A DNA stretch of 64,000 bases, taken from the sequence record PV805632.1, one strand, 5' to 3'. The notes beneath the pieces are model-generated. The model saw only the letters and a program-made list of their open reading frames with translations. It had not been told where the DNA came from and ran no database searches. A program made the translations under genes and the position numbers. This document shows positions 1 to 63,789 of the stretch, piece by piece (the stretch's first letter is position 1; each line of letters starts with the position of its first letter). This stretch comes from a phage.

Positions 1-10
1 CGGAGAAGAA

Positions 11-271
11 ATGAATATTCATAACCTACGTTTGGTTGAAAGACTGTATGAAGAATACAACGACAACCGACAGCAATTGGCTAGTCTAAAAAAGTCCCCG
101 CATATGGTGAAAGTAACCTTCTGTGATACAGATTTGGGGGTACAAGCTCGTGCAAGCATAATCCCTAAATTACTAGCATTTTATCAAAAGAAAGTGGATG
201 ACTTAGAGAAACGCCTGAAGCATTTAGGAGTTGATCTATCTTTATTACCTGAAGAAGAGGAAGAAGAGTGA
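11..271 (+). CDS. hypothetical early protein (acidic EEEEEE C-terminus)
   Basis: 86-aa ORF in track; 4-nt overlap with next ORF; no recognisable motif. Confidence 0.4.
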   Translation: MNIHNLRLVERLYEEYNDNRQQLASLKKSPHMVKVTFCDTDLGVQARASIIPKLLAFYQKKVDDLEKRLKHLGVDLSLLPEEEEEE

Positions 272-453
272 AACTTACTCAGTCCCAAGCAATTTTCCTT
301 CGCATGGTTCAAGGTGGTTCTGCCACCAGCAACCGTAATAACAAAACCGCACAGTCTCTTAAGAAGCTAGGCTTAGTACAGTTCAATGCTGGTCTTGGGT
401 GGTCATTAACCCCTACCGGTGTACTTCAACTCAACGAGTTAAAAGGTAACTAA
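268..453 (+). CDS. hypothetical small protein
   Basis: 61-aa ORF with GTG start, tightly packed between neighbours; no motif. Confidence 0.3.
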   Translation: MKLTQSQAIFLRMVQGGSATSNRNNKTAQSLKKLGLVQFNAGLGWSLTPTGVLQLNELKGN

Positions 454-780
454 ATGAAAACTTTAATTGCTGTTGTTCTAGTAGCTCTATCAGTTCTGTC
501 ATTCGGTGCTCAAGCATCCAGTCGTGCAACCTTGTTGGAAGCTGCTGCTGATTACAAAGCCAATGAGGGTAACTTTTTGAACCAGGGTTACTTCATGGGC
601 ATGGTTACCATGGCAGCAGAGGCAGGGGATAACTGTGTACCTGATGGTATAAAGTTAGGTCTCCTTTTTGACAAAGTGGCTTCTATTATTCTGTATGACC
701 GAAAGGTTAATGCAGTAAAAAAACCATCAGACATGATTCTGTTAGCGATAGATACAGCGTATCCATGCGTTAAATCTTAA
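454..780 (+). CDS. putative secreted small protein
   Basis: 108 aa; N-terminus MKTLIAVVLVALSVLSFGAQA looks like a Sec signal peptide with AQA cleavage motif. Confidence 0.5.
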   Translation: MKTLIAVVLVALSVLSFGAQASSRATLLEAAADYKANEGNFLNQGYFMGMVTMAAEAGDNCVPDGIKLGLLFDKVASIILYDRKVNAVKKPSDMILLAIDTAYPCVKS

Positions 781-814
781 TTAGTAATTCCATTAACTTT
801 AGGAGAGTAAGTAA

Positions 815-1867
815 ATGGCGAGCATTGACTCCTTGACTGTATGTAATACACGTCAAGCCCGTAACTTTATTATCCGTGCCTTGCAAGCAGGTAACGTACC
901 GTTCCTGACTTCATCACCGGGTATGGGTAAGTCTGCAATTATTCGTTCTATTGCAGAAGAATTTGGTATGAAGCTGATTGACCATCGTCTGTCTACTTCT
1001 GCCCCGGAAGACTTATCTGGTCTACCATTCCGTAATGGTGACCGTGCAGAGTTTATTCCATTTGCTGACTTATTCCCTATCGAGGGTGACGAAGTACCAG
1101 AAGGCTATAATGGCTGGCTCCTGTTCCTTGATGAGTTCAACTCAGCTAAAAAAGAAGTAGTAGCTGCTGCATACAAACTGATTCTAGACCGTATGACCGG
1201 GCAGAAAAAACTTCACCCTAATGTGATGATTATCTGTGCCGGTAATAAAGCTACTGACCGTGCTATCGTTAACCCACTGGGTACTGCAATGCAGTCTCGC
1301 GTTGTCCACTTCGAAATGGAACTTAACTTCGACATTTTTGTTGAAGACGTAATGATTCCTCAAGAATGGGATGAGCGTCTGGTTGCATTCTTACATGCTA
1401 ACCCTGGTTATCTGCACGACTTCGACCCTGCCCATAAGAACAAAACATTCTGTTGTCCACGTACCTGGGACTTTGTTAACAAAGACCTCAAGAACCGACC
1501 AGAAGGTGCTTTGCCTGATGAAGATTCTATCTACTATGCAGGCCACGTTACTGCTGGTAAGGCTACAGAGTTTGTTCAGTTCACTCAGGTATACAATCGT
1601 ATGATTACGATTGATAAGGTAGTCAAAGACCCTTTGGGCTGTGCACTACCAGAGGATAATAACCTGTGCTGGGCTACCGTTAACCACCTGGCTAACAAGA
1701 CCACTGAAGATAACTTCGTTGATGTACTTAAGTACATTGAACGCTTTAAAACGTTCACCCATAAGATTCTGTACTTCCGTACAGCAGGCAAAGCATTACC
1801 AGAAATTCAGGCTACCCCTGAATGGCGTAAAGCTGCTGCCAATATATCTCGTTACATTCACGGATAA
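815..1867 (+). CDS. AAA+ ATPase, MoxR-like
   Basis: Walker A SPGMGKSA, Walker B LLFLDEFN, sensor-1 ICAGN; AGGAGAG RBS upstream of ATG. Confidence 0.8.
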   Translation: MASIDSLTVCNTRQARNFIIRALQAGNVPFLTSSPGMGKSAIIRSIAEEFGMKLIDHRLSTSAPEDLSGLPFRNGDRAEFIPFADLFPIEGDEVPEGYNGWLLFLDEFNSAKKEVVAAAYKLILDRMTGQKKLHPNVMIICAGNKATDRAIVNPLGTAMQSRVVHFEMELNFDIFVEDVMIPQEWDERLVAFLHANPGYLHDFDPAHKNKTFCCPRTWDFVNKDLKNRPEGALPDEDSIYYAGHVTAGKATEFVQFTQVYNRMITIDKVVKDPLGCALPEDNNLCWATVNHLANKTTEDNFVDVLKYIERFKTFTHKILYFRTAGKALPEIQATPEWRKAAANISRYIHG

Positions 1868-1874
1868 TCACAAC

Positions 1875-3050
1875 ATGAACCAGATACCTCAGCACACACT
1901 TAGTGATGAACAACTCATGCGTGAGTATGACCGTATTCAGGCGCAGGCATTTCTTGGACGCAGTGCAGCGTTTTTTGGTTCATTGCTGTGTAGTCTTAAG
2001 TTCTCATGGAAACGTGAGGGCTGTCCCACTGCATGTACCGATGGGATAGAACTCCATTTCAACCCAGACTTCTTTATCTGGATGTGCCCTGATGCAAGAG
2101 AAACGGTGCTAATGCACGAACTCTGGCATGTGGCATACCTACATGGCATCCGTTGTGGAAGCCGTGACCCAGAAGTCTGGAACCAGGCATGTGACCACTT
2201 CATTAACCTTCAGTTAGAGGAAGATGGTTACAAGTTCACTGGTATCGACGAAGGCATTTGCAAAGACCCTCAATATAAAGGATGGGTCGAAGAAGACATC
2301 TACGATGACCTGATGAAGAACCCTCAGAAAAGGCAGAAGCCGTCAGGGGGTGCTGGAGCAGGTCTTGCTGGCGACATGAAAGCTCCCTCTTCGGGGCAGT
2401 CCCAGGGTGCTGTTGTCAACAACGTAGTACGTGCAATGCAAAGCCAGAAGATGGCTGGTGGAATGATGCCCGGTAAAGGTGCTGGTCGTATGGAAGAGGT
2501 TATTACCCAATTCCTTAAACCAGTGGTTCCTTGGCAGGAAGTCCTGCTGAACTTCTTTACCGACATTGATGGTACACACTATACGTGGGCCAGACCTAAC
2601 CGTCGTTTCACTGACGTCTATCTACCTTCTCTGGAAGATGATGAAGGACGCTTACGACACTTAGCCTACTTTGAGGATGTATCTGGTTCTATTAGTAGTG
2701 CTGACTCTCTGCGTTTTAACTCAGAGGTTGCCTACGTTAAGAGCCAGTTCAATCCTAAGAAGATGACCCTAATTACCTTCGACGATATTATCCAAGAAGA
2801 AATAGACATCACTGAAGAAGATACTTTTGAAGAGATTAAGATTACTGGTCGTGGTGGTACAAACCTTGAACCAGTGCGTGAATGGATCATTAAGAATAAG
2901 CCAACCGCTGCAATCATATTCTCCGATATGTATGTTCGTCCTATGGAAGAATTGCCATTTGATATCCCTATCATCTGGTGTGTTCTGAATAATCCTAATG
3001 CTACCGTACCTTTTGGGGAGGTAGTTCATATCCCTAAAGGAATGAAATAA
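1875..3050 (+). CDS. VWA-domain protein (MIDAS motif) with HExxH-like motif, partner of the MoxR-like ATPase
   Basis: MIDAS-like DVSGSIS, HELWH motif; ATG at 1875 chosen because the track start at 1641 overlaps the upstream gene; ATPase-VWA pairing is a known arrangement. Confidence 0.65.
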   Translation: MNQIPQHTLSDEQLMREYDRIQAQAFLGRSAAFFGSLLCSLKFSWKREGCPTACTDGIELHFNPDFFIWMCPDARETVLMHELWHVAYLHGIRCGSRDPEVWNQACDHFINLQLEEDGYKFTGIDEGICKDPQYKGWVEEDIYDDLMKNPQKRQKPSGGAGAGLAGDMKAPSSGQSQGAVVNNVVRAMQSQKMAGGMMPGKGAGRMEEVITQFLKPVVPWQEVLLNFFTDIDGTHYTWARPNRRFTDVYLPSLEDDEGRLRHLAYFEDVSGSISSADSLRFNSEVAYVKSQFNPKKMTLITFDDIIQEEIDITEEDTFEEIKITGRGGTNLEPVREWIIKNKPTAAIIFSDMYVRPMEELPFDIPIIWCVLNNPNATVPFGEVVHIPKGMK

Positions 3051-3556
3051 TGATTGTTAATGGTAATTCTCTATACCGTTCATCTCAATTGCTGGATGTC
3101 CCAGACCGTAAGGTATCCGAGCATGGTGTAAGCTATGGATTAGGCGAAGCTGGTTATGATATTCGTATCAAACAAGACATTACCTTCTATCGCTTATTTG
3201 GGTTAATTCCAATGGTGAAAATCGTTGATGGAAAACAAGTATCACGCCATCTCGGTAAATTCGCATTGGCTTCAGCAATTGAGAAATTCAACATGTCTCC
3301 GTCCTGTGTAGCTATCGTTCACGATAAGTCCACATGGGCAAGACGTGCATTATCTGTGTTCAATACCGTAATAGAACCAGGATGGAAAGGGTATCTTACC
3401 CTCGAACTGGTCTATCATGGTCGTAAGAAACTGCATATCCCGGCTGGTGCTGGGATAGCTCAAGTATTATTTCATCTGGTTCAAGAGCCTGCTAATTACA
3501 ACGGCAAGTATCAGAACCAGGAGGACAAACCAGTAGCTGCAAGAAGCAGTAAATAA
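3050..3556 (+). CDS. dcd: dCTP deaminase (dUTPase-superfamily fold)
   Basis: 168 aa; start overlaps upstream stop (TAATG); sequence resembles dCTP deaminase family from memory. Confidence 0.7.
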   Translation: MIVNGNSLYRSSQLLDVPDRKVSEHGVSYGLGEAGYDIRIKQDITFYRLFGLIPMVKIVDGKQVSRHLGKFALASAIEKFNMSPSCVAIVHDKSTWARRALSVFNTVIEPGWKGYLTLELVYHGRKKLHIPAGAGIAQVLFHLVQEPANYNGKYQNQEDKPVAARSSK

Positions 3557-4174: not shown

Positions 4175-4201
4175 AAGCCCACCTAACCCGTGGGCTTTTT
4201 T
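4175..4201 (+). terminator. rho-independent terminator
   Basis: AGCCCAC-CTAACCC-GTGGGCT followed by TTTTTT. Confidence 0.6.
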
Positions 4202-6789: not shown

Positions 6790-9354
6790 ATGTTAGTCGC
6801 AGATACCAATCAATCAGCCACTTCAGCGACACTGGGTGGCAAAGAAGCAATCGCTTTTGCCATCTCAGATGACCCGGCATTCTTTCATGTATTAAGTACC
6901 TCCTTGTATAACAACCCTACTCTGGCAGTAGTCCGTGAGACTATCTGTAACAGTTGGGATGCTCATATTGAAGCAGGTAAGACTGATACTCCTATCCGTA
7001 TTACTATTGATACAGACAATTTTATTACCTTCCGTGACTTCGGTAATGGGATACCAGATGAACTCATTGGTTCCATTTACGGTGTCTATGGTGCATCTAC
7101 CAAGAAGTCCAACAGTAGTGTTACTGGTGGCTTTGGTCTGGGATGTAAATCCCCATTCGCTTATACAGATAGTTTCCAGGTTACTTCATGGAACCAGGGA
7201 AAGATGTCGGTATATAACGTAGCTAAGGCTGCAATTGAGAATGATGGTAAACCGGGTATTGTCCCTATTGTTACTGGTATTCCTACTGAAGAATCCGGTC
7301 TGGAAGTTAAATTCCAACTGGGTAAGCATGATGTAAATACCTTTGTACATTACATCACATCAATTGTATTTAACGGCGAGATTAAGGCTGAGCTTAATAT
7401 TCCTAAACTTGTTCGTGAAGAAACGGGTAATAGTATTCAGCAAGGTAACTACACTCTACTGAATACTCTAGGTATGTCATTTGAACCTGGTTCATATGAT
7501 ATGTCTGATAGATGGTATCAAGGCTATATGGGTAACAGCACCATCTTTGTTCGCTACGGTAACGTAATGTACCCAATAGTATCTAGTCCGGCTAGTGAAG
7601 AGGCTGTAGGTCTTATTCTCAACTTCATGAATATCATTGGAGCTGATAATTTAGTAGTTCAGGCTGCACCGGATACCTTAGCTATTGCCCCTAGTCGTGA
7701 AACTCTGTCTAACCAGAAGTTAACCGACGATGGTATTACTACTCTATGCGTAAATTTAGTAGATCGTATGGAGAAAGAAATTAAGGCTAAGATTCCTGAA
7801 GCTATTAAGCAGATTGAAGAATATGCCTCCAAATCTTCTACTCGCTACTGGGAATACCCATCTTTCATTCTTGCTGTTACAGATGAGATTGTTAGACGCT
7901 ATATGTCCTCTAGCTTGTGGGCTAAGCAACGTAAGCATCATATTAAGCACTGGCGTAATCTATCTAATAAGGCATTACTAGCTCGCCCTGAATATGCAGG
8001 TCTTAAAAGACTGTATGGTAAGGCTATGCGTGCTCTTAAGGATACCCGTGAAGATAGTACCAACCATTCTTTCCAGGATTTGGTATATCGTCATCTGCAC
8101 CTACCTCAGCTTGCTGCTTTAAAAGCTACAGGTATTAAGTGGTCTGGTTACATAATGAACCAAGGTAACTGTGTTGACTTAGTGAAGGGTAAACTTACTG
8201 ACTACTTTAAGATGGGTTATAACTCCCACCTAGGTATTGGTATTTTCACTACCAGGAACGTTGTAGTTACCCGACGTTTATCTGACTGTGCAGACTCTTT
8301 CTCATACTTCCCAGAGTACATCCAAGGTGACCTGGAGCGAACAGCTTTTGTTCACGTCGTTGGTCCTAAGAAAGGGGAAGCAGAGAAAGCTGTAGCTAAG
8401 TTCACTGCTATGGGTTATCGGGTTATTGACCTTACTCAATATAATGAGTGGGACAGGCCAACTAACTTCCGCAGGGAACAGGCTAAGATAGCTGCTGAGA
8501 AGCGGGCTAAGACAATAGCTGCCAATAAAACCAAAGCAGGTGGTAAAACTAATGCACTGGTTTCATTGAATGCAGTACTTGGTACTTCCCCTGTACGAGA
8601 TAAAAATGGAGATTTGGTATCTAAACCACACATTGACAAGGATTTTGCTGACCCAAGATTCCATGAGGAACCTAGATTCGTTGAGGTGGATCTGCCTAAG
8701 TACTACGTACCAGCCAGTCAGGTTGTTTCTGGTAGACCAGAAACTGCCAAGATTGGAACCATGTGGAAATGGTGGGAGTTGTCTGATGAGATGAAGGCAG
8801 AGACTGTTGTCTGTCGTAATCAAATCGAAGTTAACAAAGCCAAACGACGTGGTGCTATTCATATTGATGATGTTCGTTTTAACGAACTGATGTCCGTCAT
8901 TACCAGTAAAGGATTCAAGAAATATGCTACTGAACAGCGTATCGGTGTTCTTGAGTATCTTGATTTAAATGACAAAGAGTACTGTGAAATCCTCGACATT
9001 CTTGGACTAACATTCAAACCATTACAGAGTCTGGTTCTTAAACCAGAGTATGAATGGGCATGTAACTTCCTAAGAAATCATTCGAGTAACAAAGATAAAC
9101 TGGTTGAGAAGGGCCTCATTAAGTCAGTAGATGACTTGGAACCATATGTAAAGATGGTTAATCCTCGTATGCATAAGCATTTCGAAGTACTTAACGAGTA
9201 CAAAGGGTTATTTAGATATAGCTGGGCTAAAAATGACATCCTACAGACGCTAGACTTAGGTAGTTTAGTTAAACACCTCAAGAAGAATCCAGAGGATATC
9301 CCTGGGTTTAAGTCCCTCTACCGTAATCGTCTAAATAAACTGAAAGGTAAATAA
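6790..9354 (+). CDS. rIIA: rIIA-like protein (GHKL/HATPase-like N-terminal region)
   Basis: 854 aa; GHKL-type motifs NSWDAH, DFGNGIP, GGFGLG near N-terminus; GGAGAG RBS; adjacent to rIIB-like ORF. Confidence 0.7.
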   Translation: MLVADTNQSATSATLGGKEAIAFAISDDPAFFHVLSTSLYNNPTLAVVRETICNSWDAHIEAGKTDTPIRITIDTDNFITFRDFGNGIPDELIGSIYGVYGASTKKSNSSVTGGFGLGCKSPFAYTDSFQVTSWNQGKMSVYNVAKAAIENDGKPGIVPIVTGIPTEESGLEVKFQLGKHDVNTFVHYITSIVFNGEIKAELNIPKLVREETGNSIQQGNYTLLNTLGMSFEPGSYDMSDRWYQGYMGNSTIFVRYGNVMYPIVSSPASEEAVGLILNFMNIIGADNLVVQAAPDTLAIAPSRETLSNQKLTDDGITTLCVNLVDRMEKEIKAKIPEAIKQIEEYASKSSTRYWEYPSFILAVTDEIVRRYMSSSLWAKQRKHHIKHWRNLSNKALLARPEYAGLKRLYGKAMRALKDTREDSTNHSFQDLVYRHLHLPQLAALKATGIKWSGYIMNQGNCVDLVKGKLTDYFKMGYNSHLGIGIFTTRNVVVTRRLSDCADSFSYFPEYIQGDLERTAFVHVVGPKKGEAEKAVAKFTAMGYRVIDLTQYNEWDRPTNFRREQAKIAAEKRAKTIAANKTKAGGKTNALVSLNAVLGTSPVRDKNGDLVSKPHIDKDFADPRFHEEPRFVEVDLPKYYVPASQVVSGRPETAKIGTMWKWWELSDEMKAETVVCRNQIEVNKAKRRGAIHIDDVRFNELMSVITSKGFKKYATEQRIGVLEYLDLNDKEYCEILDILGLTFKPLQSLVLKPEYEWACNFLRNHSSNKDKLVEKGLIKSVDDLEPYVKMVNPRMHKHFEVLNEYKGLFRYSWAKNDILQTLDLGSLVKHLKKNPEDIPGFKSLYRNRLNKLKGK

Positions 9355-9358
9355 TCTG

Positions 9359-10462
9359 ATGAAAATCGAACTGATTTCTATCATCGCACTGGCAGTTGAC
9401 AGTCGAAACCTCACACTGTGGAAGCCTGATGGCTCCACGGTTGTATACCCTCAGAGCGACCCACGGGTTGCTCGTATTGTATCTGAAGCACAGACTAAAG
9501 GTCTGGGCACTACCCAGGATCAAATAGAAGTAAACATTGCACCAGAAGTAGAACTTCGTACTGAATACCTGGAAGCAGAGAAGAACACCAACGGATTCGT
9601 TCGTTTCTTTAAGGTAGCTAAAGCTAAACTCAAAGAGTTCTTCGAAGATGGTACAGGTGTTTCACCAGCCCGTACCGTTTCAGATATTAAGCTGGGTAAT
9701 CCTACTAAGACACTAGTGTCTAAAGCTATGGATACTTTTCTGGCTGTCCAGGCTAATGAACCAGAAGTAACGGTAGCAGATGGTTACTACGACAAACGTG
9801 ACAATCTGATGTGGGTTACCGGTTGGGATAAAGACCATAACCATCTTGCACTGGTTCGTTTTATTGACTACGTACTTTGTTGGAGTCATAAGCATACTGA
9901 TCATATTCTTGCACAGGAGTGGCCTATTGCAATTCGTGCAGTATCTGATGATGAAATGGGTGAGTTTGCTAAACAAGCCCAATACATCAAAGGTGTACAC
10001 ATTGTATTTACCAACCGTGGAGAAACACCACTGCCTTACGTGGAAGTAGCTAAAACCTCGAACCAGGATAAGCTGGCTGCTGCTTCAGAGAAACTGGCTG
10101 CATTAGGTGCTATCAGTACTGATGACACTAACTTCCATACTGATGTGAAGGAAGATGAAGTGGTTGTTGCTGTTACCAACAATGGGGTTATCCCTGGGGT
10201 TGAGAACCTGCAACGCCACCTGCGTCAGTCTGCCAAGCTGAAAGACTATAAGGGCTTTACTAAGTTCCTTGAGCGTCTGGCTCCGGTTATTAAAGACCGT
10301 CTGCACTCAGTGGAAGACCTGATGAAGTTCATGGAAACTGCTGAACTGCCTATCGCTGATGATGGCTCTATCCTGTTCCTGAAACGACTTAAGTTCAGAG
10401 GTGAAGAAATGGTAAGCGTGTATTCGTTGACTGTCACTCAGGCAACATTCGTCAGTGGGTAG
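9359..10462 (+). CDS. rIIB: rIIB-like protein, N-terminal segment (possibly a frameshifted single gene with 10543..11403)
   Basis: 367-aa ORF immediately after rIIA; the next frame is open from 10405 and the two ORFs together give about 680 aa; assignment by position and size only. Confidence 0.45.
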   Translation: MKIELISIIALAVDSRNLTLWKPDGSTVVYPQSDPRVARIVSEAQTKGLGTTQDQIEVNIAPEVELRTEYLEAEKNTNGFVRFFKVAKAKLKEFFEDGTGVSPARTVSDIKLGNPTKTLVSKAMDTFLAVQANEPEVTVADGYYDKRDNLMWVTGWDKDHNHLALVRFIDYVLCWSHKHTDHILAQEWPIAIRAVSDDEMGEFAKQAQYIKGVHIVFTNRGETPLPYVEVAKTSNQDKLAAASEKLAALGAISTDDTNFHTDVKEDEVVVAVTNNGVIPGVENLQRHLRQSAKLKDYKGFTKFLERLAPVIKDRLHSVEDLMKFMETAELPIADDGSILFLKRLKFRGEEMVSVYSLTVTQATFVSG

Positions 10463-10542
10463 GTTGTAAAGTACAGGTACGAGAAGACCTGGTAGACCCT
10501 GACCGTCGTCAGGACTGCTCTAATGGTCTGCACGTAGCATCT

Positions 10543-11403
10543 ATGAGCTATATCCGTACCTTCGGTGGTAACGTAACTATCCTTGGTAAAGTAGCACCAG
10601 AAGATGTATTTGCTGTTCCTGAGTACAACACTAATAAGATGCGTGTAGCTGCGTATCACATTATTGCTGAACTACCAGAAGAGGAACGTTGCAACGTTAA
10701 CAATGGTATCTATCTGTCTAATACAGAAGTGGGTAAGAAGTTACTTAATGATGCCATCGTTGGGAACCATAGTTCACCTACCACACTTGTTATGGTTGGT
10801 GGGCATCGTGGTACTAACCTCAAATACACCAATCTATCGTCTGGTTCTGTAGAACAATTCCGTACAGTTGCTAATAAAGAGGCACTGAATATGGAAGAGT
10901 CACTGAATGAAGCTGTAGCTGCTGAACCAGTGAAGGCTACTGACCTTAAACCTATTGTTAATAAGGCTCCTACCGTGAAAGAACAAATCCAGGAACTGAT
11001 TAAAGAGTTCCTTAACGCTGCTACTCCAGAAGATAAATTAGCTGCTGCTGATTTACTTGTGGAAATGCGAGGTAAGGCTCGTAAGCCATGGGCTGCTTTA
11101 GGTGTTGGTTCCGATGTGGTATCTAAGATTGCTGATGTACGTAGTACTCGCATTCCTGCACCAAAAGCGAAACCAGTGAAGAAAACTAAGGTTCACCGTT
11201 CGGCTACTGCTACTAAGGTAGCACCGTCTGGTAAACACGCTGATAATCTGCGTAGCATCCTGAATGATACGTCCTACTCTGACTATCAGAAAGGTCATGC
11301 TCTGCAAGACTATAAGCGTCATGCTAAGAAGTCATTCACTGCAATGGGTCTGACTGAAGAAGAAGCTAAGTTAGCTACCAAGCTGGTCAAGGCCGTTAAG
11401 TAA
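10543..11403 (+). CDS. rIIB-like protein, C-terminal segment (frame open upstream to 10405, no RBS at ATG 10543)
   Basis: 286-aa ORF; its frame continues 46 codons upstream and overlaps the end of 9359..10462. Confidence 0.4.
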   Translation: MSYIRTFGGNVTILGKVAPEDVFAVPEYNTNKMRVAAYHIIAELPEEERCNVNNGIYLSNTEVGKKLLNDAIVGNHSSPTTLVMVGGHRGTNLKYTNLSSGSVEQFRTVANKEALNMEESLNEAVAAEPVKATDLKPIVNKAPTVKEQIQELIKEFLNAATPEDKLAAADLLVEMRGKARKPWAALGVGSDVVSKIADVRSTRIPAPKAKPVKKTKVHRSATATKVAPSGKHADNLRSILNDTSYSDYQKGHALQDYKRHAKKSFTAMGLTEEEAKLATKLVKAVK

Positions 11404-11418
11404 TAGCCTGTTCAAATG

Positions 11419-11442
11419 CCCTCACTTATAATAAAGTGAGGG
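11419..11442 (+). promoter_or_regulatory. 9-bp stem-loop just after the rIIB-like stop (terminator-like, no U-tract)
   Basis: CCCTCACTT-ATAATA-AAGTGAGGG. Confidence 0.4.
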
Positions 11443-11465: not shown

Positions 11466-11861
11466 ATGAGTTCTGTATACAGAGTTAATCGCAAAGCAAC
11501 TGATGAAGACATCATTCGTATGAATGCTGTTGGTCTGTCCCTCGCAACTATCGCTAAGACGTTGGGGGTTCACCCCACTACGGTTACTTTGCGATTGCGT
11601 TCTTTAAACATTGAACCAGCCGACACACGTCGGACGTTCATGGAGAATGTACTCCGTCCATTACCAACCCATGTGGTAGATTGGCTATCAGAGCAAGTTG
11701 GTCCTGCTTATGAGATTCGTTCATATGTAAGGGACTTGATTCTGGAGGCATATAATAATCGCCACCTTAACCAAGAGAGTGAGCATGACAAGTTCATCCG
11801 TTTGTACGCTGGAAAACACACGGCAATGGTTTCTAAAAGCCGTACCAAATCCGACGAGTAA
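11466..11861 (+). CDS. small putative DNA-binding protein (helix-turn-helix-like)
   Basis: ATG 11466 with AAGAGG 9 nt upstream; segment GLSLATIAKTLGVHPTTV resembles an HTH. Confidence 0.45.
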   Translation: MSSVYRVNRKATDEDIIRMNAVGLSLATIAKTLGVHPTTVTLRLRSLNIEPADTRRTFMENVLRPLPTHVVDWLSEQVGPAYEIRSYVRDLILEAYNNRHLNQESEHDKFIRLYAGKHTAMVSKSRTKSDE

Positions 11862-11882
11862 GAATATTAGTACCCAGATTGG

Positions 11883-12239
11883 TTGCCATCTGGAAGAAGT
11901 AGAGGAAATGCTTCAGACCATTTATCCAATGGTAGTTACGATGCAGAACTACTACAACGTGCACAGGATGCCATTACAAATCTGGCAAACCATATGAAGC
12001 GTAAGGCCGATGCCTACCGTATTGACGTTAGTACTGACCTGCTGGATGCACTGGCAGACCAGATTGTTACAGCAACTGGCGTCGGTACTTTCCTTGGGAT
12101 GAATGTCCCCGGAGCATTGGCTGAGGTCAATCGCTCAAACTATTCCAAGTTCGAAGATGGGGAACCTATCTTCAACGAGAACAAGAAAGTCATGAAGGGG
12201 AAAGATTATACTCCCCCTGATTTAAAACCTTACATCTAA
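11883..12239 (+). CDS. putative MazG-like nucleotide pyrophosphohydrolase, C-terminal part (N-terminal motif lies in another frame, 11779..11997)
   Basis: TTG-start ORF; LLDALADQIV and EVNRSNYSKF resemble MazG-like helices; HLEEVEEML (EExxE-like) is in the overlapping frame. Confidence 0.35.
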   Translation: MPSGRSRGNASDHLSNGSYDAELLQRAQDAITNLANHMKRKADAYRIDVSTDLLDALADQIVTATGVGTFLGMNVPGALAEVNRSNYSKFEDGEPIFNENKKVMKGKDYTPPDLKPYI

Positions 12240-17015: not shown

Positions 17016-17299
17016 TGACTAAGCTCTCCGGTGGTCTTAATAACTACTATGTAGTTTCAATTAAGAATCCCCAACGGAAAGAGCAAGAGCCATATCAAGC
17101 AGAGTGTGAGGATATTATCCAAGCACTGGGCATGACCTTCGATGAAGGTTGTGCCTTTAAAGCTCTATGGCGAAATGCTGCTGCCCGTATGGGTAATGGT
17201 AAACCTGGCAACTCTTCAGTGTACGACTCAGAGAAGATTGTGCATTATGCCAATCGAATATTGAAAAAGGCTTACAATGAAAGTAACCAACAATCATGA
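17015..17299 (+). CDS. hypothetical protein
   Basis: 94-aa ORF, overlaps the upstream stop. Confidence 0.45.
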   Translation: MTKLSGGLNNYYVVSIKNPQRKEQEPYQAECEDIIQALGMTFDEGCAFKALWRNAAARMGNGKPGNSSVYDSEKIVHYANRILKKAYNESNQQS

Positions 17300-18257: not shown

Positions 18258-20407
18258 GCATTGACCTTACCGGAGTAGTGCATCATCCAGCGATTGAAGA
18301 AATCGTAGATGTGCTCTGCAATAAAACCCAGAATAACGACCGGGGATTCTTCCGTGTCGAAGTAGCCTACTTCTTGGCTAAAATGGCATCCTGCATGGGT
18401 GCAACCATCGTAACTAAAGACCGTGGTGACCTGCCGGTAAACATCTACGCTATGGCGTTGGCTACATCTGGTTTCGGTAAAGGTCACTCGGTAAATATCA
18501 TTGAAGACGGGTTCATGACTGGCTTCCGTAAACGTTTTATGGAAGACACCATGCCCGTCATTGCAAATGACCGTTTATGGAAGATTGCTAACGAACGTGC
18601 TGCTCGTCAGGGTACGGACCAGAATGATGAGTTCGATAAAGTTGAGGCAGAGTATAAGCGTGCTGGGGCATTCCCATTCACATTCGACTCTGGTACAGCA
18701 CCTGCTGTAAAACAGCTTCGTCACAAGCTGCTTATGGCTGGTTGTGGTGCTATTAACTTACAAATTGATGAGATTGGTTCCAACCTCATTGCCAACGTTG
18801 AAGTTCTTAACCTGTTCCTTGAGTTGTATGACCAGGGGAAAGTAAAACAGAAGTTAACCAAGAACACTGCTGAAAGTATTCGTGGTGAAGAACTGGATGG
18901 TAAAACTCCTGCTAACCTGCTGCTGTTCGGTACTCCGAGTAAGCTGCTGGATGGTGGTCAGACCGAAGACCAGTTCTATGACTTCCTCGATACAGGGTAT
19001 GCACGTCGTTGTCTATTTGCCATTGGGCACTTAGATAAACGAGCACATGCAACGATGACTCCGGAAGAAATCTACCATAACCTGATTAAGCAGGATAACG
19101 TTCAGTCTCTTGGTAAGTGGGCCAACCACTTCCATAGTCTGGCTGACCCAAACCTGTTTGGCTTTAAGATGATTGTGGAAGATGCAGTGGGTATTGCTCT
19201 GATTGCTTACAAAATTGATTGTGAGAAACAAGCAGAGGCTATGGCTGACCACGAAGAAATTCGTAAGGCTGAAATCTCCCATCGTTACTTCAAGGCTCTT
19301 AAACTGGCAGGTGCATTGGCGTTTGTTGACCAGAGTTCATTCATTGAGATGTCTCACCTTAAACAAGCAATCCTGCTCGTAGAAGAATCTGGGGCAGCAT
19401 TCCAGGGTATTCTCAATCGTGAGAAAGCCTATGTGAAGCTGGCTAAGTACATTGCCTCCGTAGGTAAAGAGGTTACTCATGCTGACTTGCTGGAGTCGTT
19501 ACCATTCTATAAGAGTGGTAATGCAGCTCGTAATGAGATGATGACTCTTGCTACAGCATGGGGTTACAAACAGCACATCATTATTAAGAAGACCTTCAAT
19601 GAAGGTATTGAGTTCTTCCGTGGGGAGACTCTGAAAGAGACTGACACCAATGAGATGATAGTGGCATATAGTGATAGCTTTGCTTATGACTATGTTGGTG
19701 AACGTGTACCGTTTGACCAGCTACATGTATTAACCCAAGCTCCCGGTATGCACTGGGTAAACCATCACATGAAGAATGGGCATCGTTCTGAAGAGAACGT
19801 TATTCCAGGATTTAACATGATTGTTATTGACTGTGATGGTGGAGTACCACTGCATACGTGCCATGAACTGATGAAGGAATATAAGTTCATGACCTATACC
19901 ACTAAGCGTCATACCGATGAAGAGAACCGTTTCCGTTTGATTATTCCAATGAACTATGAGTTACACCTCGACACTGAGGAATACAAAGAGTTCATGAATA
20001 ACGTTATGGCTTGGCTACCATTCGAAACGGATGAGTCTGCTAACCAACGAGCTAAGAAGTGGATGTCCTGTGAGACTGGTTCCTATCATTACAACCTTGA
20101 TGCGAATCTGTTGGATGTACGTGACTTTATTCCTCGTACCAGTAAGAACGAGCAGTTCCAGAACCAGATGAAGGAAGTTCAGTCGTTGGATAATCTGGAG
20201 CGTTGGTTCGCTGGTCGTATTGCCTCCGGTAATCGTAATAATCAAATGATTAAATACGCACTGGCATTAGTAGACAGTGGTTGGGACTTTGCTCAGGTAC
20301 AGCAAGCCGTCTACTCATTCAATAAGAAACTGGCTAATCCATTACCAGATGATGAATTGAATTCAACCGTAATGGTCACCGTGGCTAAACGCTTCGCTGG
20401 CAAGTAA
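18254..20407 (+). CDS. putative DNA primase / replication protein
   Basis: about 717 aa from ATG 18254 (ATGA overlap with upstream stop, AGAGAGAG RBS); assigned by size and position, no motif confirmed. Confidence 0.45.
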   Translation: MSIDLTGVVHHPAIEEIVDVLCNKTQNNDRGFFRVEVAYFLAKMASCMGATIVTKDRGDLPVNIYAMALATSGFGKGHSVNIIEDGFMTGFRKRFMEDTMPVIANDRLWKIANERAARQGTDQNDEFDKVEAEYKRAGAFPFTFDSGTAPAVKQLRHKLLMAGCGAINLQIDEIGSNLIANVEVLNLFLELYDQGKVKQKLTKNTAESIRGEELDGKTPANLLLFGTPSKLLDGGQTEDQFYDFLDTGYARRCLFAIGHLDKRAHATMTPEEIYHNLIKQDNVQSLGKWANHFHSLADPNLFGFKMIVEDAVGIALIAYKIDCEKQAEAMADHEEIRKAEISHRYFKALKLAGALAFVDQSSFIEMSHLKQAILLVEESGAAFQGILNREKAYVKLAKYIASVGKEVTHADLLESLPFYKSGNAARNEMMTLATAWGYKQHIIIKKTFNEGIEFFRGETLKETDTNEMIVAYSDSFAYDYVGERVPFDQLHVLTQAPGMHWVNHHMKNGHRSEENVIPGFNMIVIDCDGGVPLHTCHELMKEYKFMTYTTKRHTDEENRFRLIIPMNYELHLDTEEYKEFMNNVMAWLPFETDESANQRAKKWMSCETGSYHYNLDANLLDVRDFIPRTSKNEQFQNQMKEVQSLDNLERWFAGRIASGNRNNQMIKYALALVDSGWDFAQVQQAVYSFNKKLANPLPDDELNSTVMVTVAKRFAGK

Positions 20408-20463: not shown

Positions 20464-21216
20464 ATGTCCGAAGAAATCTCCAATGATATGAACACTCAGC
20501 TAATTCTGATTGCAGGATTCTCAGCGAGTGGTAAATCAGCATCATTGCGTAATATCCGGAACCAGGATCGCTGGTTGTATCTGAATACGGAAGCAGGTAA
20601 GCGTCTACCTTTCCGTAATAAGTTCAACACCTACAACATTGAAGACCCATATCAGATTTGGGAAGCATTTGATGTTGCATCTCCGGGTGGTGAAATGGCA
20701 GACGATGTTGATGGTATCATTATCGACTCTGCTACCTTCATGATGGACATGCTGGAATCCCAGTATGTATTGCCATCTGCTAATACCCAGAAAGCCTGGG
20801 GAGACTTTGCACAGTTCTTTAAAATACTGCTGCAACAAAAAGTCGTTAAGTTTGGTAAGCCAGTAATCATTACTGCTCATGCCAAAGATGAACTCGATGA
20901 AGCTGCTGGTGTGATGAAAACATTCATCCCAGTTAAGGGTTCACTGAAGAACAATGGCCTTGAGGCTTACTTCTCTACAGTGGTTTACGCAGAACGCGTA
21001 GACATTAAAGAGCTGGAGAAGTATGGCAACAAGATGCTTGATATTACGGAAGAAGAACGTGACTTAGGCTATAAGCACGTATTCCAGACACGTCCAACCA
21101 AGAAGTCTGTTGGTAAACGACTTCGCTCACCAATGGGTATGTTTGATAAGTCGCAGACTTATATTGATAATGATGCCCAAAAACTCTTAGACCATCTGGC
21201 TGAATACTACGCTTAA
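20464..21216 (+). CDS. P-loop NTPase (small phage ATPase, possibly recombination/replication-associated)
   Basis: Walker A GFSASGKS, Walker B-like GIIIDSAT; 250 aa. Confidence 0.5.
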   Translation: MSEEISNDMNTQLILIAGFSASGKSASLRNIRNQDRWLYLNTEAGKRLPFRNKFNTYNIEDPYQIWEAFDVASPGGEMADDVDGIIIDSATFMMDMLESQYVLPSANTQKAWGDFAQFFKILLQQKVVKFGKPVIITAHAKDELDEAAGVMKTFIPVKGSLKNNGLEAYFSTVVYAERVDIKELEKYGNKMLDITEEERDLGYKHVFQTRPTKKSVGKRLRSPMGMFDKSQTYIDNDAQKLLDHLAEYYA

Positions 21217-23065: not shown

Positions 23066-23296
23066 TCTGGTAGGTGGCTCAGAAGCTGCTGCTAGGTGTG
23101 GTAGTGTTTATAGTCCTGATGCTACTACTGGTCAGGATTATAGACGTGTCGGCTCCATACATAGCTTTTATCATCACTGTCATTATCCTGTGGAAATGCA
23201 GTGGTAAACACGGTGGTGACAAGCCGCCAGAATAACAACAACCGAACCAGTGGATTGGAATACTCTCCCCAGTCCATTGGTTCAACCGAGGCTAAT

Positions 23297-23467
23297 ATGA
23301 ACAAATTTACTATTCACTGGCTCAATGGAATAGTTAGTTCTTTCATGGGTGGGGAACCTGTTGAAGGAAACAAAGCATTCCACATTGATTCAGAAGGCTG
23401 CAAAATCTTAGTACCATACGCTTGGTATAAGAATGGTGAAGTTGAAGCATTGAAAAAGAGCAGTTAA
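23297..23467 (+). CDS. hypothetical small protein
   Basis: ATG 23297 with GAGG 8 nt upstream; the longer track ORF from 23201 lacks an RBS. Confidence 0.4.
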   Translation: MNKFTIHWLNGIVSSFMGGEPVEGNKAFHIDSEGCKILVPYAWYKNGEVEALKKSS

Positions 23468-38960: not shown

Positions 38961-39443
38961 TTAACGGGTTAGTTTATTAGCTGCAATGTAAGCGTCAGCC
39001 GAAGACTGGTCACGGTTCTCTGCTGTAGCACGACTACGAGCACGGTCTTCCAGTGCAGTGTTATAAGACTTAATCTGATTATTCAGGTTAGTGTTAGTAA
39101 CGCTCTTAGCAAAGTTCAACTGGTTTTTGGCTAACTTGTTAGCCTGGAAACCGCCATAGATATTGGCTAAGGAACCAAGTGCATCCAGACCTAGTTGGAA
39201 GGTAGGAATGTTCATGCCCAATTGGTCAGTCAAGCCTGAATCGTTACCAGAACCAAACAAAGAACTATCCAAACTACCATTTAAAAAATCCATGCCAACT
39301 GTTTGTCCGGGCCGATAATTCATTGCCGGAGTACTAAAGTTTTGCTTCTGGTTGTTACCAGATAACCAGGACAAAGCCCCTGGCTGAAGGGTTTGGTTGC
39401 CTGTTAAGAATGACAAATCCATGGGGATTCTCCTGTTAAACAA
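38961..39443 (-). CDS. hypothetical virion protein
   Basis: 160-aa ORF in the structural operon. Confidence 0.45.
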   Translation of the reverse strand: MFNRRIPMDLSFLTGNQTLQPGALSWLSGNNQKQNFSTPAMNYRPGQTVGMDFLNGSLDSSLFGSGNDSGLTDQLGMNIPTFQLGLDALGSLANIYGGFQANKLAKNQLNFAKSVTNTNLNNQIKSYNTALEDRARSRATAENRDQSSADAYIAANKLTR

Positions 39444-41571
39444 GGTCTGTATTAAGAGTCATATCAGAGTAGCTGCCAATCATGTTTAAAGACATGTCAG
39501 CTATATCCGAACCAGTCATAAGAGTACGTGAGAGGAAAGAATCCAACGACTCCATTGACACAAATTGCATAGGGTCAATTACACCCTGCCCAGCAGTACC
39601 AAACATTTCTTCATACTGCTTATTGATTGCCATCATATCAGTATTGTACTGCTGCATTACATTCTCTGCTTTCTGAATAGTAGCAGCCGTAGATGCATTA
39701 ATATACTGGCTAATACCATTACCTACTGAACTGGTAAGCTGCATAATGTTCTGAGCATTCATCATTTCACCGGCTAAGGTAGATAAGGATGTACCAGTAG
39801 ACATAGCAGTACCAACGTTCATAGCCACCATTGAAGCAATAGCAGCAATGATAAAACCTAGCTTATCACCAAACAGAGAAGTGGATACTTTAGTGACAAT
39901 AGATATCATAATCATTGCAGCAATGGCGTTTGCTACAGCACCTACTATTACAGCAGCTAATCCAACAAAACCTAGCGATGCACCAACTGCACCATAAGCC
40001 CCAAGAATACCTGCACCACCAGCACTACCAGCACCCATAGTAAATACGGATATAACGACAGCAACTACAACAACCACAATCTTAAAGGCAGAGGACTGAT
40101 ACCACTTTTTCTTAACCTTTTTATATGAGTTCATTACTAAGTAAGAGCAGGCAGTAGATAACTGAGTGCTACGAACTAGTGACATTGAACGATAGATGTT
40201 GGTGTGCAGGGGAATAATGAATCCACTCTCTTCTGCATCACCCATTGCTTCAGCAACATCAATATTTACTGACTTATTTTTATATACCTTGTTGCTATGA
40301 TGAAGGCCCAATACCCTAAGTTTACGGTAGGTATTATTACCATCCTGCCAAAGCAACTCATATTCTTGCATAGTATAAAACGTAGGGGTAACTTCCAGCT
40401 TTTTGCTAGCACCAGCACGCATGTTCTTACGGGTAAGGGTTATATCCCCTGCATATCTGGCTCGAAGTTGTCCTTGTTTAGCACCAGCCCATGCTTCACC
40501 GGAATGGGTAGTTTCAAATACGTAGTTCCAACTAATAGTCATATCATACTTATAATGCTTACTACTATGCACCCTAAACTCCCGCTTAGGTATAACAGGG
40601 TATTCTGGCAGAGGTGGAGGTGTTCCAACAATTTGACCTTCCTGCCTGTTCCACCATTCCTCATATGCATCAACTGCATCATTTGCTGCCTGATAACCTG
40701 CAATCACTGCTTCCAGTGTAGGGTAGGTTGGATCAGGTGGAAATGCTTCAGTAGCCATCTGAAAGAAACGGTAGATGTATTCCTTAGCAGTATCTTCTGG
40801 AGTATTAAGAGATACACCGAATGTGCCATAGATGTATTGAATATCGCCTATGTCATCATTCTTCTTAAGCTCAGTCACTACTTTATCTAGCTTACCACCA
40901 GTAGCTTTATAGAGTGCCTTCTTACAGTGGGGGTAGATTGTGTCATTCTCTACCCATTGCTTATCATTCCTGATTGGAATAAATGGATAGAATCGGTTAT
41001 CAGTAGCCTCAGTTTCAAACAGTGAATCGAGTGTAGCGTTACCTGAGTTCTTCTTATAGATAAGCATCTTAGGTGTACCAACAGCAGTCATCTCAGTGTC
41101 AGTACGAGTAGTCTGGGATGAGTACTTACGAACCAGTGTCTCTGTGGTCGTGGTGATTGTATCTGTGCGAGTAACACCACCACCTAAATTAACTACATTA
41201 GTGGTTACAGTAGTACTGGATTGAACCTCACCGAACTTTCTATGAGTCATTACCCTATCAGATACAACTACAGTTACATCATCAGGCTTCTCAGTGAATC
41301 CTCTACGGTAAACCTTAACGTAAGAGTTCCAGTTATCCACACTTGGTACAGTAACAGTACTGTCTTCATATGGTCTACCATCAGAGTAAACAGAATGAAT
41401 CTGTATAGTCTTAGTAAGATTGGTTGTGTTAGCCGTCGTATTACTTGAGATGGTAGTCCATAACAGAGTAGACGGTAAGTCATTTTCGCTGTTATAGACA
41501 GTAGTCGGACCTACTACCGGTGGATTGGTAGCCGGGGACTTATAGAACGTGTAATCAGCATAGAGATACAA
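39436..41571 (-). CDS. virion structural protein, C-terminal part (likely one gene with 41514..42086)
   Basis: 711-aa ORF with TTG start and no RBS; its frame is open upstream to 41643 and overlaps the preceding ORF. Confidence 0.5.
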   Translation of the reverse strand: MYLYADYTFYKSPATNPPVVGPTTVYNSENDLPSTLLWTTISSNTTANTTNLTKTIQIHSVYSDGRPYEDSTVTVPSVDNWNSYVKVYRRGFTEKPDDVTVVVSDRVMTHRKFGEVQSSTTVTTNVVNLGGGVTRTDTITTTTETLVRKYSSQTTRTDTEMTAVGTPKMLIYKKNSGNATLDSLFETEATDNRFYPFIPIRNDKQWVENDTIYPHCKKALYKATGGKLDKVVTELKKNDDIGDIQYIYGTFGVSLNTPEDTAKEYIYRFFQMATEAFPPDPTYPTLEAVIAGYQAANDAVDAYEEWWNRQEGQIVGTPPPLPEYPVIPKREFRVHSSKHYKYDMTISWNYVFETTHSGEAWAGAKQGQLRARYAGDITLTRKNMRAGASKKLEVTPTFYTMQEYELLWQDGNNTYRKLRVLGLHHSNKVYKNKSVNIDVAEAMGDAEESGFIIPLHTNIYRSMSLVRSTQLSTACSYLVMNSYKKVKKKWYQSSAFKIVVVVVAVVISVFTMGAGSAGGAGILGAYGAVGASLGFVGLAAVIVGAVANAIAAMIMISIVTKVSTSLFGDKLGFIIAAIASMVAMNVGTAMSTGTSLSTLAGEMMNAQNIMQLTSSVGNGISQYINASTAATIQKAENVMQQYNTDMMAINKQYEEMFGTAGQGVIDPMQFVSMESLDSFLSRTLMTGSDIADMSLNMIGSYSDMTLNTDLV

Positions 41572-42086
41572 AGCACCTGGTTCAAAGTTAGTAGGTGTGA
41601 ATGTAATGGGGGAACTCCATCTAAGGAGGTCATAGTGATTACATTAGTATCTTCATCAATGTCTATGTCGAATCGTTCCATGATTCGACTTGGGGCATTC
41701 TCATAAAGATACTGATCACACCATTGCTCAAAGTCAGCAAAGCCAATCTCTGCTGCCTGAACATAGACAGATTCTCCAGCAGGTGGGGTAATTTGATCCT
41801 CTATAACAGTAGGGTCAATCTTAGCCAGTACACCTAACGAAGAACCTGCCATACCAACTTCTGAATCATAGTGATTCTTACTCCAGCTAGAAAACAGTCG
41901 CATACGTATACCAGGCCCCTTCAGATAACTATCAGAGATAGTGTCTGCCATAGTGAATCCTGTATCAGCAACAATCTTACCGATGACTACAGTCTTCATA
42001 TAGTTTGGACGCTTGTGTATATCCCCTGCCATGTTATAGACAGAGGATGCTACGTATACTTTGGTCTTACTACTGAATAAGCCCAT
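41514..42086 (-). CDS. virion structural protein, N-terminal part (possible frameshift at GGGGG 41607-41611)
   Basis: 190-aa ORF overlapping the 711-aa ORF by 58 nt in another frame. Confidence 0.45.
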   Translation of the reverse strand: MGLFSSKTKVYVASSVYNMAGDIHKRPNYMKTVVIGKIVADTGFTMADTISDSYLKGPGIRMRLFSSWSKNHYDSEVGMAGSSLGVLAKIDPTVIEDQITPPAGESVYVQAAEIGFADFEQWCDQYLYENAPSRIMERFDIDIDEDTNVITMTSLDGVPPLHSHLLTLNQVLCISMLITRSISPRLPIHR

Positions 42087-61128: not shown

Positions 61129-61206
61129 ATTTTTGCATGTCAAAAATGTGATAGTTATGTATGGCTACAGTGGTGTGGCTAGGGCTACACCCTTACACGT
61201 TAACTA

Positions 61207-61220
61207 CCCCCCCCCCCCCC
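61207..61220. repeat. homopolymeric poly-C tract (14 nt)
   Basis: CCCCCCCCCCCCCC read directly from the sequence. Confidence 0.9.
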
Positions 61221-61326
61221 GGTATGTTGACTCATGGGTGTACTACCCTACCCCACCTTACACGTTACACGTTGCTCCGCAACTTATGGACATGTCGTCC
61301 TATCATCAACTATTGGAGCTATCATC

Positions 61327-61650
61327 ATGACTACTACCGCTACTGTACGTATGACCGCAGGAACTCTGCTGGGTACTGTTAACTCTGCTGCTACTACTGT
61401 TGCAGATTCATTCGGTGCTGCTACTAAAGCAGTTGGTATGCTTAATTCTTACGTAGCTACTATGGCAAAGAAACAAGCCATTCGTACTAAATTAGAAATG
61501 CATACTTTCGAAAACAAATTAGCTGAAGAAACAGCTATGAACGAGACTATGCGTAAGAAAAGTATCGAAGAATTCTGCAAAGATCCAGAAAACGCTCGTA
61601 TCTACAACGCAGAATATTCAAGAATAATTGACATCCTGTCTAAAGACTAA
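61327..61650 (+). CDS. hypothetical protein
   Basis: ATG 61327 with GGAG 8 nt upstream; the longer track ORFs run through the poly-C tract. Confidence 0.45.
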   Translation: MTTTATVRMTAGTLLGTVNSAATTVADSFGAATKAVGMLNSYVATMAKKQAIRTKLEMHTFENKLAEETAMNETMRKKSIEEFCKDPENARIYNAEYSRIIDILSKD

Positions 61651-61653
61651 ATC

Positions 61654-61680
61654 AATAGGAGGCTCTTCGAGCCTCCTATT
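61654..61680. promoter_or_regulatory. perfect 12-bp stem / 3-nt loop hairpin (terminator or hairpin-type promoter)
   Basis: AATAGGAGGCTC-TTC-GAGCCTCCTATT immediately after a stop codon; no U-tract. Confidence 0.5.
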
Positions 61681-61740
61681 AAGGGCATTAGATAGATAGA
61701 TAGTCAGTTCTGTATAAAAAGATAGGAGAGATACCTACTA

Positions 61741-61886
61741 TGAGCAAACTAAAAAACGCATTCATGCTGATTGTCAGTGTCCTTGCACTTGTTGCTATGG
61801 TTTCCGTATACATTGGAAAACCTCTGGTAAACACTGACTATGGTCATGGTCAGAAAGTAAAATCCATCCTGCTAATGGATAAGTAA
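61741..61886 (+). CDS. hypothetical small membrane protein (48 aa)
   Basis: hand-translated; single hydrophobic helix FMLIVSVLALVAMVSVYI. Confidence 0.3.
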
Positions 61887-62070
61887 AATGTCCCTGAATC
61901 TAAATCACCGTAAGAATCTCTGGATATCTTACATACCCTAAAAGACAACGACGCTCCGCGTCTTATGGATGATGTAAATGCATCCACTAATCATTGAAAT
62001 TTTATCCTTTTGTTTGGGTGTTCTCACCGACGAGTTCACCCGTAAATCACATAAATCTGGAGAGTACAAA

Positions 62071-62454
62071 ATGTCTATTCAAAAATTCACTTTCGGTCAA
62101 TCTAACGCTGCTGCTACTTCTACTGCTAAAACTGATAAACCAAAAGCTCAGTTCTGGCTGAACATTGGTTATGTAGCTAATGAAGGCTCTGATGATGAGA
62201 AATTCATCTCGCTGCCTACTGGTATTCCACTGGATACTCAGGAACCACTGCCAACTAACAGCAGCAATGCTGACTTCCGTGCTATGCGTTGTGCACAGAA
62301 CGATTTGTTAGAACAGTTAATCGAATATGCTCAGAACCTGAAACCAGGTGAAGAAGGCATCATTAACCTGCAAGTTCAACTTCGTCGTGTGAAAGCAGAG
62401 GCTGCTGACATCCCAGCAGACGAGAATAAATATGCTCGTAAACTGACTTTCTAA
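62071..62454 (+). CDS. hypothetical protein
   Basis: ATG 62071 with GGAGAG RBS; the track start at 61978 lacks an RBS. Confidence 0.45.
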
Positions 62455-62463
62455 TCAACCACT

Positions 62464-62492
62464 GGACTCCCTTCGGGGAGTCTTTTATTTTT
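62464..62492 (+). terminator. rho-independent terminator
   Basis: GGACTCCC-TTCG-GGGAGTC followed by TTTTATTTTT. Confidence 0.65.
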
Positions 62493-62597
62493 AACTCAGC
62501 GATAAACTAAGTTTAACTTTTAGGGGCTTTTCGACGAAGAGTCACTAAAACTTAAACGTAAACAGAAGCAGATAACTTAGAGTAAGGAGTAATCAAG

Positions 62598-62897
62598 ATG
62601 CGTACACTATGTAACCGTTATAATCCAACCGGACTGATTAACATCATGGCCTTATATGGTAGCAAAATGACTTATGGTGCTCGTTGGCAAGTGTCTGTAG
62701 AAGACAAGAATGGCAAATGTCATGACCACTACTTCGTAGCTAAGCCTACTCGTAAACAAATCCGTAAACTTCACAAAGTACGTAAGCATTACTTACTAAG
62801 TAAATGCTACGAATGTGGCAAAAGGATAGAACTAGGTAAAGAATTTACTTTTGATGATCTCAACTATGCTCACAATAACTGCTTAGGAACTAAATAA
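62598..62897 (+). CDS. hypothetical protein with Cys/His cluster (possible zinc ribbon)
   Basis: CHDH ... CYECGK ... HNNC. Confidence 0.4.
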   Translation: MRTLCNRYNPTGLINIMALYGSKMTYGARWQVSVEDKNGKCHDHYFVAKPTRKQIRKLHKVRKHYLLSKCYECGKRIELGKEFTFDDLNYAHNNCLGTK

Positions 62898-62898
62898 A

Positions 62899-63303
62899 AT
62901 GACTACTCATAAAATTGTAAAAAGCTGGACTACTGAAGCTGGTTTATCTGCTGTAATCCTGCTAGTAAATGATGGTTCTCACCATTGTGGTTACGTAGCA
63001 TTGCCTGCTGATTTAGCAGACAAAGACTTTATTAATTATGATCCAGAAGAATCCATTTCTGTTCATGGTGGTGTTACCTATCAAGATGCACTTCCTCAAT
63101 TAGAGGATAAAATCGCTATCGGTTTTGATTGTGCTCATCACGGTGACCTCATGAAATGCCCTGAGAAGTACAAAGGTACTCCTCTGGAAGGACTGCGCAT
63201 GTATTCAGAAGGTGTATGGCGAGATGAGCAATATTGCACCAATGAGTGTGAGTCTATGGCTAAACAACTAATGGCAATGTTGCCTAAACAACTAGAAGGA
63301 TAA
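62899..63303 (+). CDS. hypothetical protein with His-rich motifs (possible metal-binding)
   Basis: GSHHCGY ... CAHHGD. Confidence 0.4.
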   Translation: MTTHKIVKSWTTEAGLSAVILLVNDGSHHCGYVALPADLADKDFINYDPEESISVHGGVTYQDALPQLEDKIAIGFDCAHHGDLMKCPEKYKGTPLEGLRMYSEGVWRDEQYCTNECESMAKQLMAMLPKQLEG

Positions 63304-63307
63304 TGCT

Positions 63308-63460
63308 ATGAAGCTACTAGCAGAGATTCTGTGTATTTTATTAATGATACTGCTGGTAGCTGCATTTCCGTGGCTATTAGCCGTAGGCATTATTATTGGT
63401 ATGCTCGTAGCCGGAGCGAGTGATGCTCGTGGCAGAGATGAGCCAGGTGGAGATGTGTAA
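63308..63460 (+). CDS. small hydrophobic membrane peptide (50 aa)
   Basis: hand-translated MKLLAEILCILLMILLVAAFPWLLAVGIIIGMLVAGASDARGRDEPGGDV. Confidence 0.35.
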   Translation: MKLLAEILCILLMILLVAAFPWLLAVGIIIGMLVAGASDARGRDEPGGDV

Positions 63461-63658
63461 ACACTGCCAGAAGAGTATGTACGGGGGAACCAGTGATATT
63501 CACTAACATTGAGGATGCCATTGAAGAATGTATCTTCCGTAGATATCACACTGGAGTACAGAAACGACACTATGGTGTTGTGCAACTCAATGGCTATCAA
63601 ATGGCTGTAAGAATTGTACGTAACAATAAACCTTTTAACTTTATGTGGAGTACTAAAC

Positions 63659-63787: not shown

Positions 63788-63789
63788 TA

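Follow-up and report, generated by a model that had tools for sequence, protein, structure and literature searches.

A Single rIIB-Like Gene Is Distributed Over Two Reading Frames

The window, by which we mean the whole 64,000-nt stretch of phage DNA that was analyzed (record PV805632.1), contains at 9359–11403 on the plus strand a coding region that is distributed over two reading frames. The first ORF (ORF1) starts with an ATG at position 9359, is read in frame 2, encodes 367 aa, and ends at 10462. Frame 1 opens at 10405, directly behind a TGA at 10402–10404, and stays open up to the stop codon at 11401–11403 (ORF2), whereby the two frames overlap by 58 nt (10405–10462), which corresponds to about 19 codons. 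This layout had been described in the first-pass annotation, where it was also proposed that a single rIIB-like protein of N4-type phages is encoded by the two ORFs, one for its N-terminal and one for its C-terminal half. Sequence alignments bear this out. The 350 codons at 9359–10409 (frame 2) present 97.1% amino acid identity to residues 1–350 of gp34 from phage vB_EcoP_G7C (G7C), and the 331 codons at 10408–11403 (frame 1), which begin with NGKRVFVDCHSG, present 97.9% amino acid identity to residues 351–681 of the same protein. In G7C, the rIIB-like gp34 (“RIIB lysis inhibitor”, YP_004782163.1; NC_015933.1, 18878..20923) is a single CDS of 681 aa. Both ORFs also matched the same PHROG, namely phrog_2886 (“RIIB lysis inhibitor”), ORF1 at positions 1–259 of 552 (E = 1.9e-92) and ORF2 at positions 246–552 (E = 2e-117). 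Together, the two halves span the whole profile, of which the intact G7C gp34 covers positions 1–551. Since both halves match one protein family from end to end, the split is no chance juxtaposition of two ORFs. Searches of Pfam, NCBIfam, and PDB sequences with the rIIB-like protein yielded no match, and the family is named by PHROGs only.

The genes surrounding this region are organized as in G7C. Directly upstream, at 6790–9354 on the plus strand, lies an intact rIIA-like gene, which encodes 854 aa in one frame. Its product shows 94% amino acid identity to G7C gp33 and matches phrog_2979 (“RIIA lysis inhibitor”, E = 4e-290) as well as the Pfam family HATPase_c_3. This GHKL-ATPase gene and the rIIB-like gene are followed by gp35, gp36, and gp37 (with the helicase gene after gp35/gp36), so that the rIIB-like gene lies between gp33 and gp35 as it does in G7C. 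Both the match to the family profile and the gene order are those of the rIIB-like family. The single uninterrupted ORF of about 680–710 codons that characterizes the family is missed by one base and is obtained once one A is inserted. A single rIIB-like gene occupies 9359–11403, and the phage is a Gamaleyavirus of the G7C type (Schitoviridae, N4-like). Any role in lysis inhibition or exclusion resistance would be an analogy, as the name has been transferred from T4 by homology; the BASEL paper describes the rIIA/rIIB-like locus as “poorly understood” and cites the protection against RexAB in T4. Just 3′ of the rIIB stop codon, at 11419–11442, there is a perfect 9-bp hairpin (CCCTCACTT ATAATA AAGTGAGGG), whose counterpart in G7C is annotated as a stem_loop behind gp34 (20939..20962).

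The Frame Change Coincides With a Shortened A-Run

The DNA alignment places the frame change at 10407–10409 on the plus strand. Here, the window reads GAAGAAATGG, with AAA at 10407–10409, whereas G7C and Bas96 both read GAAGAAAATGG, with AAAA (G7C 19927–19930), so that GAAGA-AATGG of the window stands against GAAGAAAATGG in the alignment and the frame breaks after codon 350. In the catalogue of indels relative to G7C, this missing A is the only one in the rIIB-like gene. With one A inserted, the ORF extends over 2046 nt and contains no stop codon but the terminal one, and its 681 codons align to G7C gp34 without gaps and equal it in length; the joined size of about 680 aa expected in the first-pass annotation was thus accurate. 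What has to be revised is the statement that the overlap is free of homopolymers. The beginning of the overlap holds the AAA at 10407–10409, exactly at the AAAA of G7C and Bas96, and the argument made there against a homopolymer error falls away because the missing base sits in an A-run (A4 to A3).

As written, the gene would yield an N-terminal fragment with a nonsense tail, consisting of 349 native residues (350 with the Met codon at 10409–10411) and the 18 residues MVSVYSLTVTQATFVSG. The out-of-frame stretch of ORF1 (10410–10462, plus strand) comprises the last base of this Met codon, followed by VSVYSLTVTQATFVSG and the stop codon at 10460–10462. In the protein alignment the tail has no counterpart in any relative; the aligned relatives read NGKRVFVDCHSG at this place. 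The C-terminal 331 residues would go untranslated, since there is no place for translation to start in this part.

The sequence downstream of the break does not have the appearance of a decaying gene. Nei–Gojobori dN/dS values relative to G7C are 0.065 for codons 1–350 and 0.069 for codons 351–681, and neither a further stop codon nor a further indel occurs in the 331 downstream codons. A long-standing pseudogene was rejected on these grounds: since the C-terminal half has been constrained at the protein level just like the N-terminal one, the break, if real, must be extremely recent.

The Reading Frame Is Continuous in Related Phages

In a megablast search against 50,697 phage records, 56 G7C-like phages (Gamaleyavirus, Schitoviridae) spanned the full 2045-nt query, the best match being vB_EcoP_G7C itself with 95.2% nucleotide identity. 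The span is a multiple of three bases (2031–2061) in all 40 of the 40 records listed, compared to 2045 in the window. Furthermore, 15 loci were inspected directly, including N4 and IMG/VR contigs at 38–95% amino acid identity. All 15 carry one open frame of 681–709 codons across the site, where the protein reads ...G(E/T)(E/D)(N/D)GKRVFVDCHSG.... Hence, a broken rIIB occurs neither among the related records listed (40 of 56) nor in the 15 inspected loci. For some relatives, two annotated features lie under the match, which might be taken for a split gene; according to the annotations, these are an intact rIIB and a small downstream gene. Relatives that encode two separate proteins had been named beforehand as the observation that would speak against a single gene. 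Instead, one protein covers both ORFs in the relatives.

The rIIB-like gp34 of N4 belongs to the same family as the window gene and its 701 codons run through the homologous site in one open frame, but the two share only about 47% amino acid identity. The rIIB gene of T4 is only a distant relative of the window gene, which it matches via the PHROG core only (phrog_609 and others). T4 rIIB is the gene of the classic acridine-induced +1/−1 frameshift mutants. If the deletion in the window were real, it would be a lesion of the same kind, namely a single-base frameshift at a short A-run.

No Signals for Recoding or for a Second Gene Were Found at the Break

Among the explanations offered in the first-pass annotation was a programmed frameshift. 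In this case, −1 ribosomal frameshifting or transcriptional slippage within the 10405–10462 overlap would join the two frames into a full-length protein. The 58-nt overlap would allow for this, and a shift right after GAA GAA would restore the exact ancestral EENGKR. However, an X_XXY_YYZ heptamer is absent between 10403 and 10462, and re-pairing of the tRNAs from GAA to AGA or from ATG to AAT is impossible. For transcriptional slippage, the A3 run is much too short. Nor is there a stimulatory RNA structure, as the 92 nt at 10409–10500 fold with −19.6 kcal/mol, compared to a mean of −22.4 for shuffled sequences (z = +0.83). Moreover, the two-frame layout is not conserved. The relatives read through in one frame throughout, so that a recoding signal could not have been established by selection. 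Two other genes of the window, gp36 and gp53, are broken as well (see the following section); their breaks likewise lack slippery sites, and the gp53 breaks of other records sit at other positions. With neither a slippery heptamer nor a stimulatory structure nor a conserved layout, programmed frameshifting was rejected as very improbable.

It was also considered that rIIB is naturally split into two polypeptides in this phage and that the second one uses an unusual start. Both ORFs are indeed long and open. Against this, frame 1 contains no ATG, GTG, or TTG before the ATG at 10543, and a start at this position would lose 46 conserved residues. The first-pass annotation had already pointed out that this ATG lacks a ribosome binding site, and in fact no SD-like sequence precedes it, while true starts nearby have AAGG or GGAG. 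Neither is there a promoter-like site on the plus strand in this region. The break does not fall on a domain boundary but within the core common to all rIIB PHROGs (G7C residues about 285–446), the 18-residue tail of ORF1 matches nothing, and no relative has two genes here. The two-gene reading, for which start, SD sequence, and promoter are all missing and against which the single ORF of the relatives stands, was therefore rejected as well and appears even more improbable than recoding. Also when taken together, the two explanations account for only a very small part of the probability.

Two Further One-Base Deletions Occur in the Window

All G7C proteins were mapped onto the window by tblastn and every indel relative to G7C was catalogued. 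This revealed two further lesions of the same type. The first one is located at 11928–11929 (plus strand), where the window has AA and G7C has AAA. It splits gp36, the NTP pyrophosphohydrolase gene at 11785–12239 (phrog_671). G7C reads CCAAATGGTAG and the window CCAATGGTAG, which changes CCAAATGG into CCAATGG. By tblastn, gp36 was found in two frames of the window, and one inserted A restores its 151 aa. In the relatives, gp36 is one ORF in 16 of 16 loci (17 rows, with G7C present twice, as L008 and as the query). The second lesion is located at 41615, where the window has one C (on the coding strand, a G) in place of the CC of G7C, so that AACCTCC becomes AACTCC. It splits gp53, the tail-plug homologue on the minus strand (39436–42086), roughly at residue 157 of 883. 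One inserted base restores the 883 aa, and the gene is otherwise 99.1% identical to G7C at the nucleotide level. In N4, gp53 is the tail plug, in which the tail tube is corked by a knot made up jointly of residues 29–56 and 670–716 (PMC13434306). A true break at about residue 157 should thus be very harmful and would be hard to reconcile with an infectious virion. All other coding indels relative to G7C are multiples of three or are compensated within a few bases, which means that genuine evolution in this lineage kept the reading frames and that the three isolated deletions are outliers.

The lesions in gp34 (10407–10414) and gp36 (11928–11934) share the same sequence context, the 8-mer AAATGGTA, which in both cases has become AATGGTA. 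Their codon phase is identical, too, with A AAT GGT A changed to A ATG GTA and thereby Asn-Gly to Met-Val. Chance is an unlikely explanation for this common context, which suggests a systematic error that depends on the context and may be one of basecalling or polishing. The 8-mer was rejected as a deterministic error or recoding motif, since four other copies are intact in the window, at 6508 and 42123 and, on the minus strand, at 39275 and 57835. Of the shortened form AATGGTA, there are more than 30 sites.

Frame-broken conserved genes have precedents in public Gamaleyavirus records. In Bp4 (NC_024142.2), Uz-1 (OP312987.1), and pSb-1 (NC_023589.1), gp53 is annotated as two CDS, and rIIB is unbroken in these phages. 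The breaks are at about aa 379 in Bp4 and Uz-1, which have identical coordinates and record length, and at about aa 650 in pSb-1, compared to about aa 157 in the window. A conserved recoding site in gp53 was rejected because the break positions differ between Bp4/Uz-1, pSb-1, and the window. In Bp4, Uz-1, and pSb-1, the split of the tail-plug gene probably reflects frame errors specific to the individual records.

Outside of genes, a T-run at 4196–4201 has six T compared to seven in G7C. It follows a GC-rich stem as a terminator-like tail upstream of gp29, where the difference is harmless.

The Missing A Is Most Likely an Error of the Record

Out of the four options listed in the first-pass annotation, an indel error and a true pseudogene are left, the latter solely as a very recent null allele, while two genes and a programmed frameshift do not stand. 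We consider it most likely, at a probability of roughly 70%, that the missing A is a consensus error of sequencing or assembly in the record; the phage itself would then make a normal 681-aa rIIB-like protein. The lesions of the same type in gp36 and gp53 move the balance toward such an error, since a phage whose tail plug is truly broken would hardly be expected to be viable.

The other explanation is that the deletion is real. The AAA allele would then be a very recent frameshift null of the rIIB-like gene in the isolate or population, which would make the truncated 367-aa product only, and we would be dealing with a G7C-like phage that is null for rIIB, and possibly for gp36 as well, either by nature or through selection in the laboratory. 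By analogy with T4, what would be lost is a contribution to lysis timing or to Rex-type exclusion resistance. Several observations are consistent with this. A-runs are natural sites of frameshift mutation, and the rIIB lesion lies in such a run. rII mutants of T4 arise readily and are noticed through their plaque morphology. The lesions of the window are found in short runs (A4, A3, and C2), whereas longer runs inside genes (A6, T7) are intact; this distribution differs from the length-dependent profile that homopolymer errors of sequencing platforms classically show, and the four intact copies of AAATGGTA likewise speak against a simple artefact. Moreover, the presence of rIIA/rIIB varies among N4-like phages and the genes are absent from some of them, so that the locus is dispensable in some lineages and true loss of rIIB could be compatible with viability (PMC3670811).

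On the other hand, relaxed selection is not seen downstream of the break (dN/dS 0.07), and a viable phage with three simultaneous knockouts, i.e., of rIIB, gp36, and the tail-plug gene gp53, which encodes a structural protein of the virion, is unlikely. The unbroken rIIB of the relatives points in the same direction. Furthermore, the A3 allele was seen nowhere else. In exact DNA scans it was absent from IMG/VR and from JGI metagenome contigs, in both of which the A4 positive controls were found. No independent copy of the phage or of the allele was obtained by exact-protein look-up of ORF1, rIIA, and the helicase, nor by megablast against complete genomes and plasmids of E. coli. Altogether, a real null allele appears clearly less probable than an error of the record, although it is far more plausible than recoding or two genes. 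A more exotic version would take the breaks in gp34, gp36, and gp53 all as real and assume that some non-canonical recoding at the short runs allows them to be bypassed.

The finding as such is an ordinary one, as it concerns a known gene with a one-base deletion, which is probably a record error. For annotation, it follows that the region should be entered as a single rIIB-like gene, in corrected form or with a frameshifted/pseudo flag, and not as two hypothetical proteins, and that the record warrants checking also at gp36 (about 11928) and gp53 (about 41615). Should the deletion be real, it would provide a natural rIIB-null phage of the N4 type and thus a ready-made mutant for probing the rIIA/rIIB-like pair in N4-type phages, which would be mildly useful for understanding the role of these genes outside T4. 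Even then, it would not present a new kind of biology.

The Window Is a Circularly Permuted Genome of the G7C Type

As a whole, the window is a G7C-type genome that is circularly permuted with respect to the linear G7C record, with 94–97% identity to G7C over long collinear blocks and lower identity in short variable stretches. G7C positions 7–3290 map to window positions 61182–64000 and 1–262, directly after the match to the right end of G7C. The window therefore shows the 1160-bp terminal repeat in a single copy. Four of the HNH homing-endonuclease genes of G7C (gp2.1, gp24.1, gp41.1, and gp47.1) have no counterpart in the window, and the same applies to gp1.2 and gp17.1. Junctions of such gene absences relative to G7C are located near 1867–1884, 17259–17277, 23262–23304, and 62512–62524. 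The phage of the window is thus an HNH-poor relative of G7C. In the region homologous to the terminal repeat of G7C, a C14 homopolymer is found at 61207–61220 where G7C has C7. The length may truly vary here, or the longer run may have arisen during assembly where the terminal repeat was collapsed.
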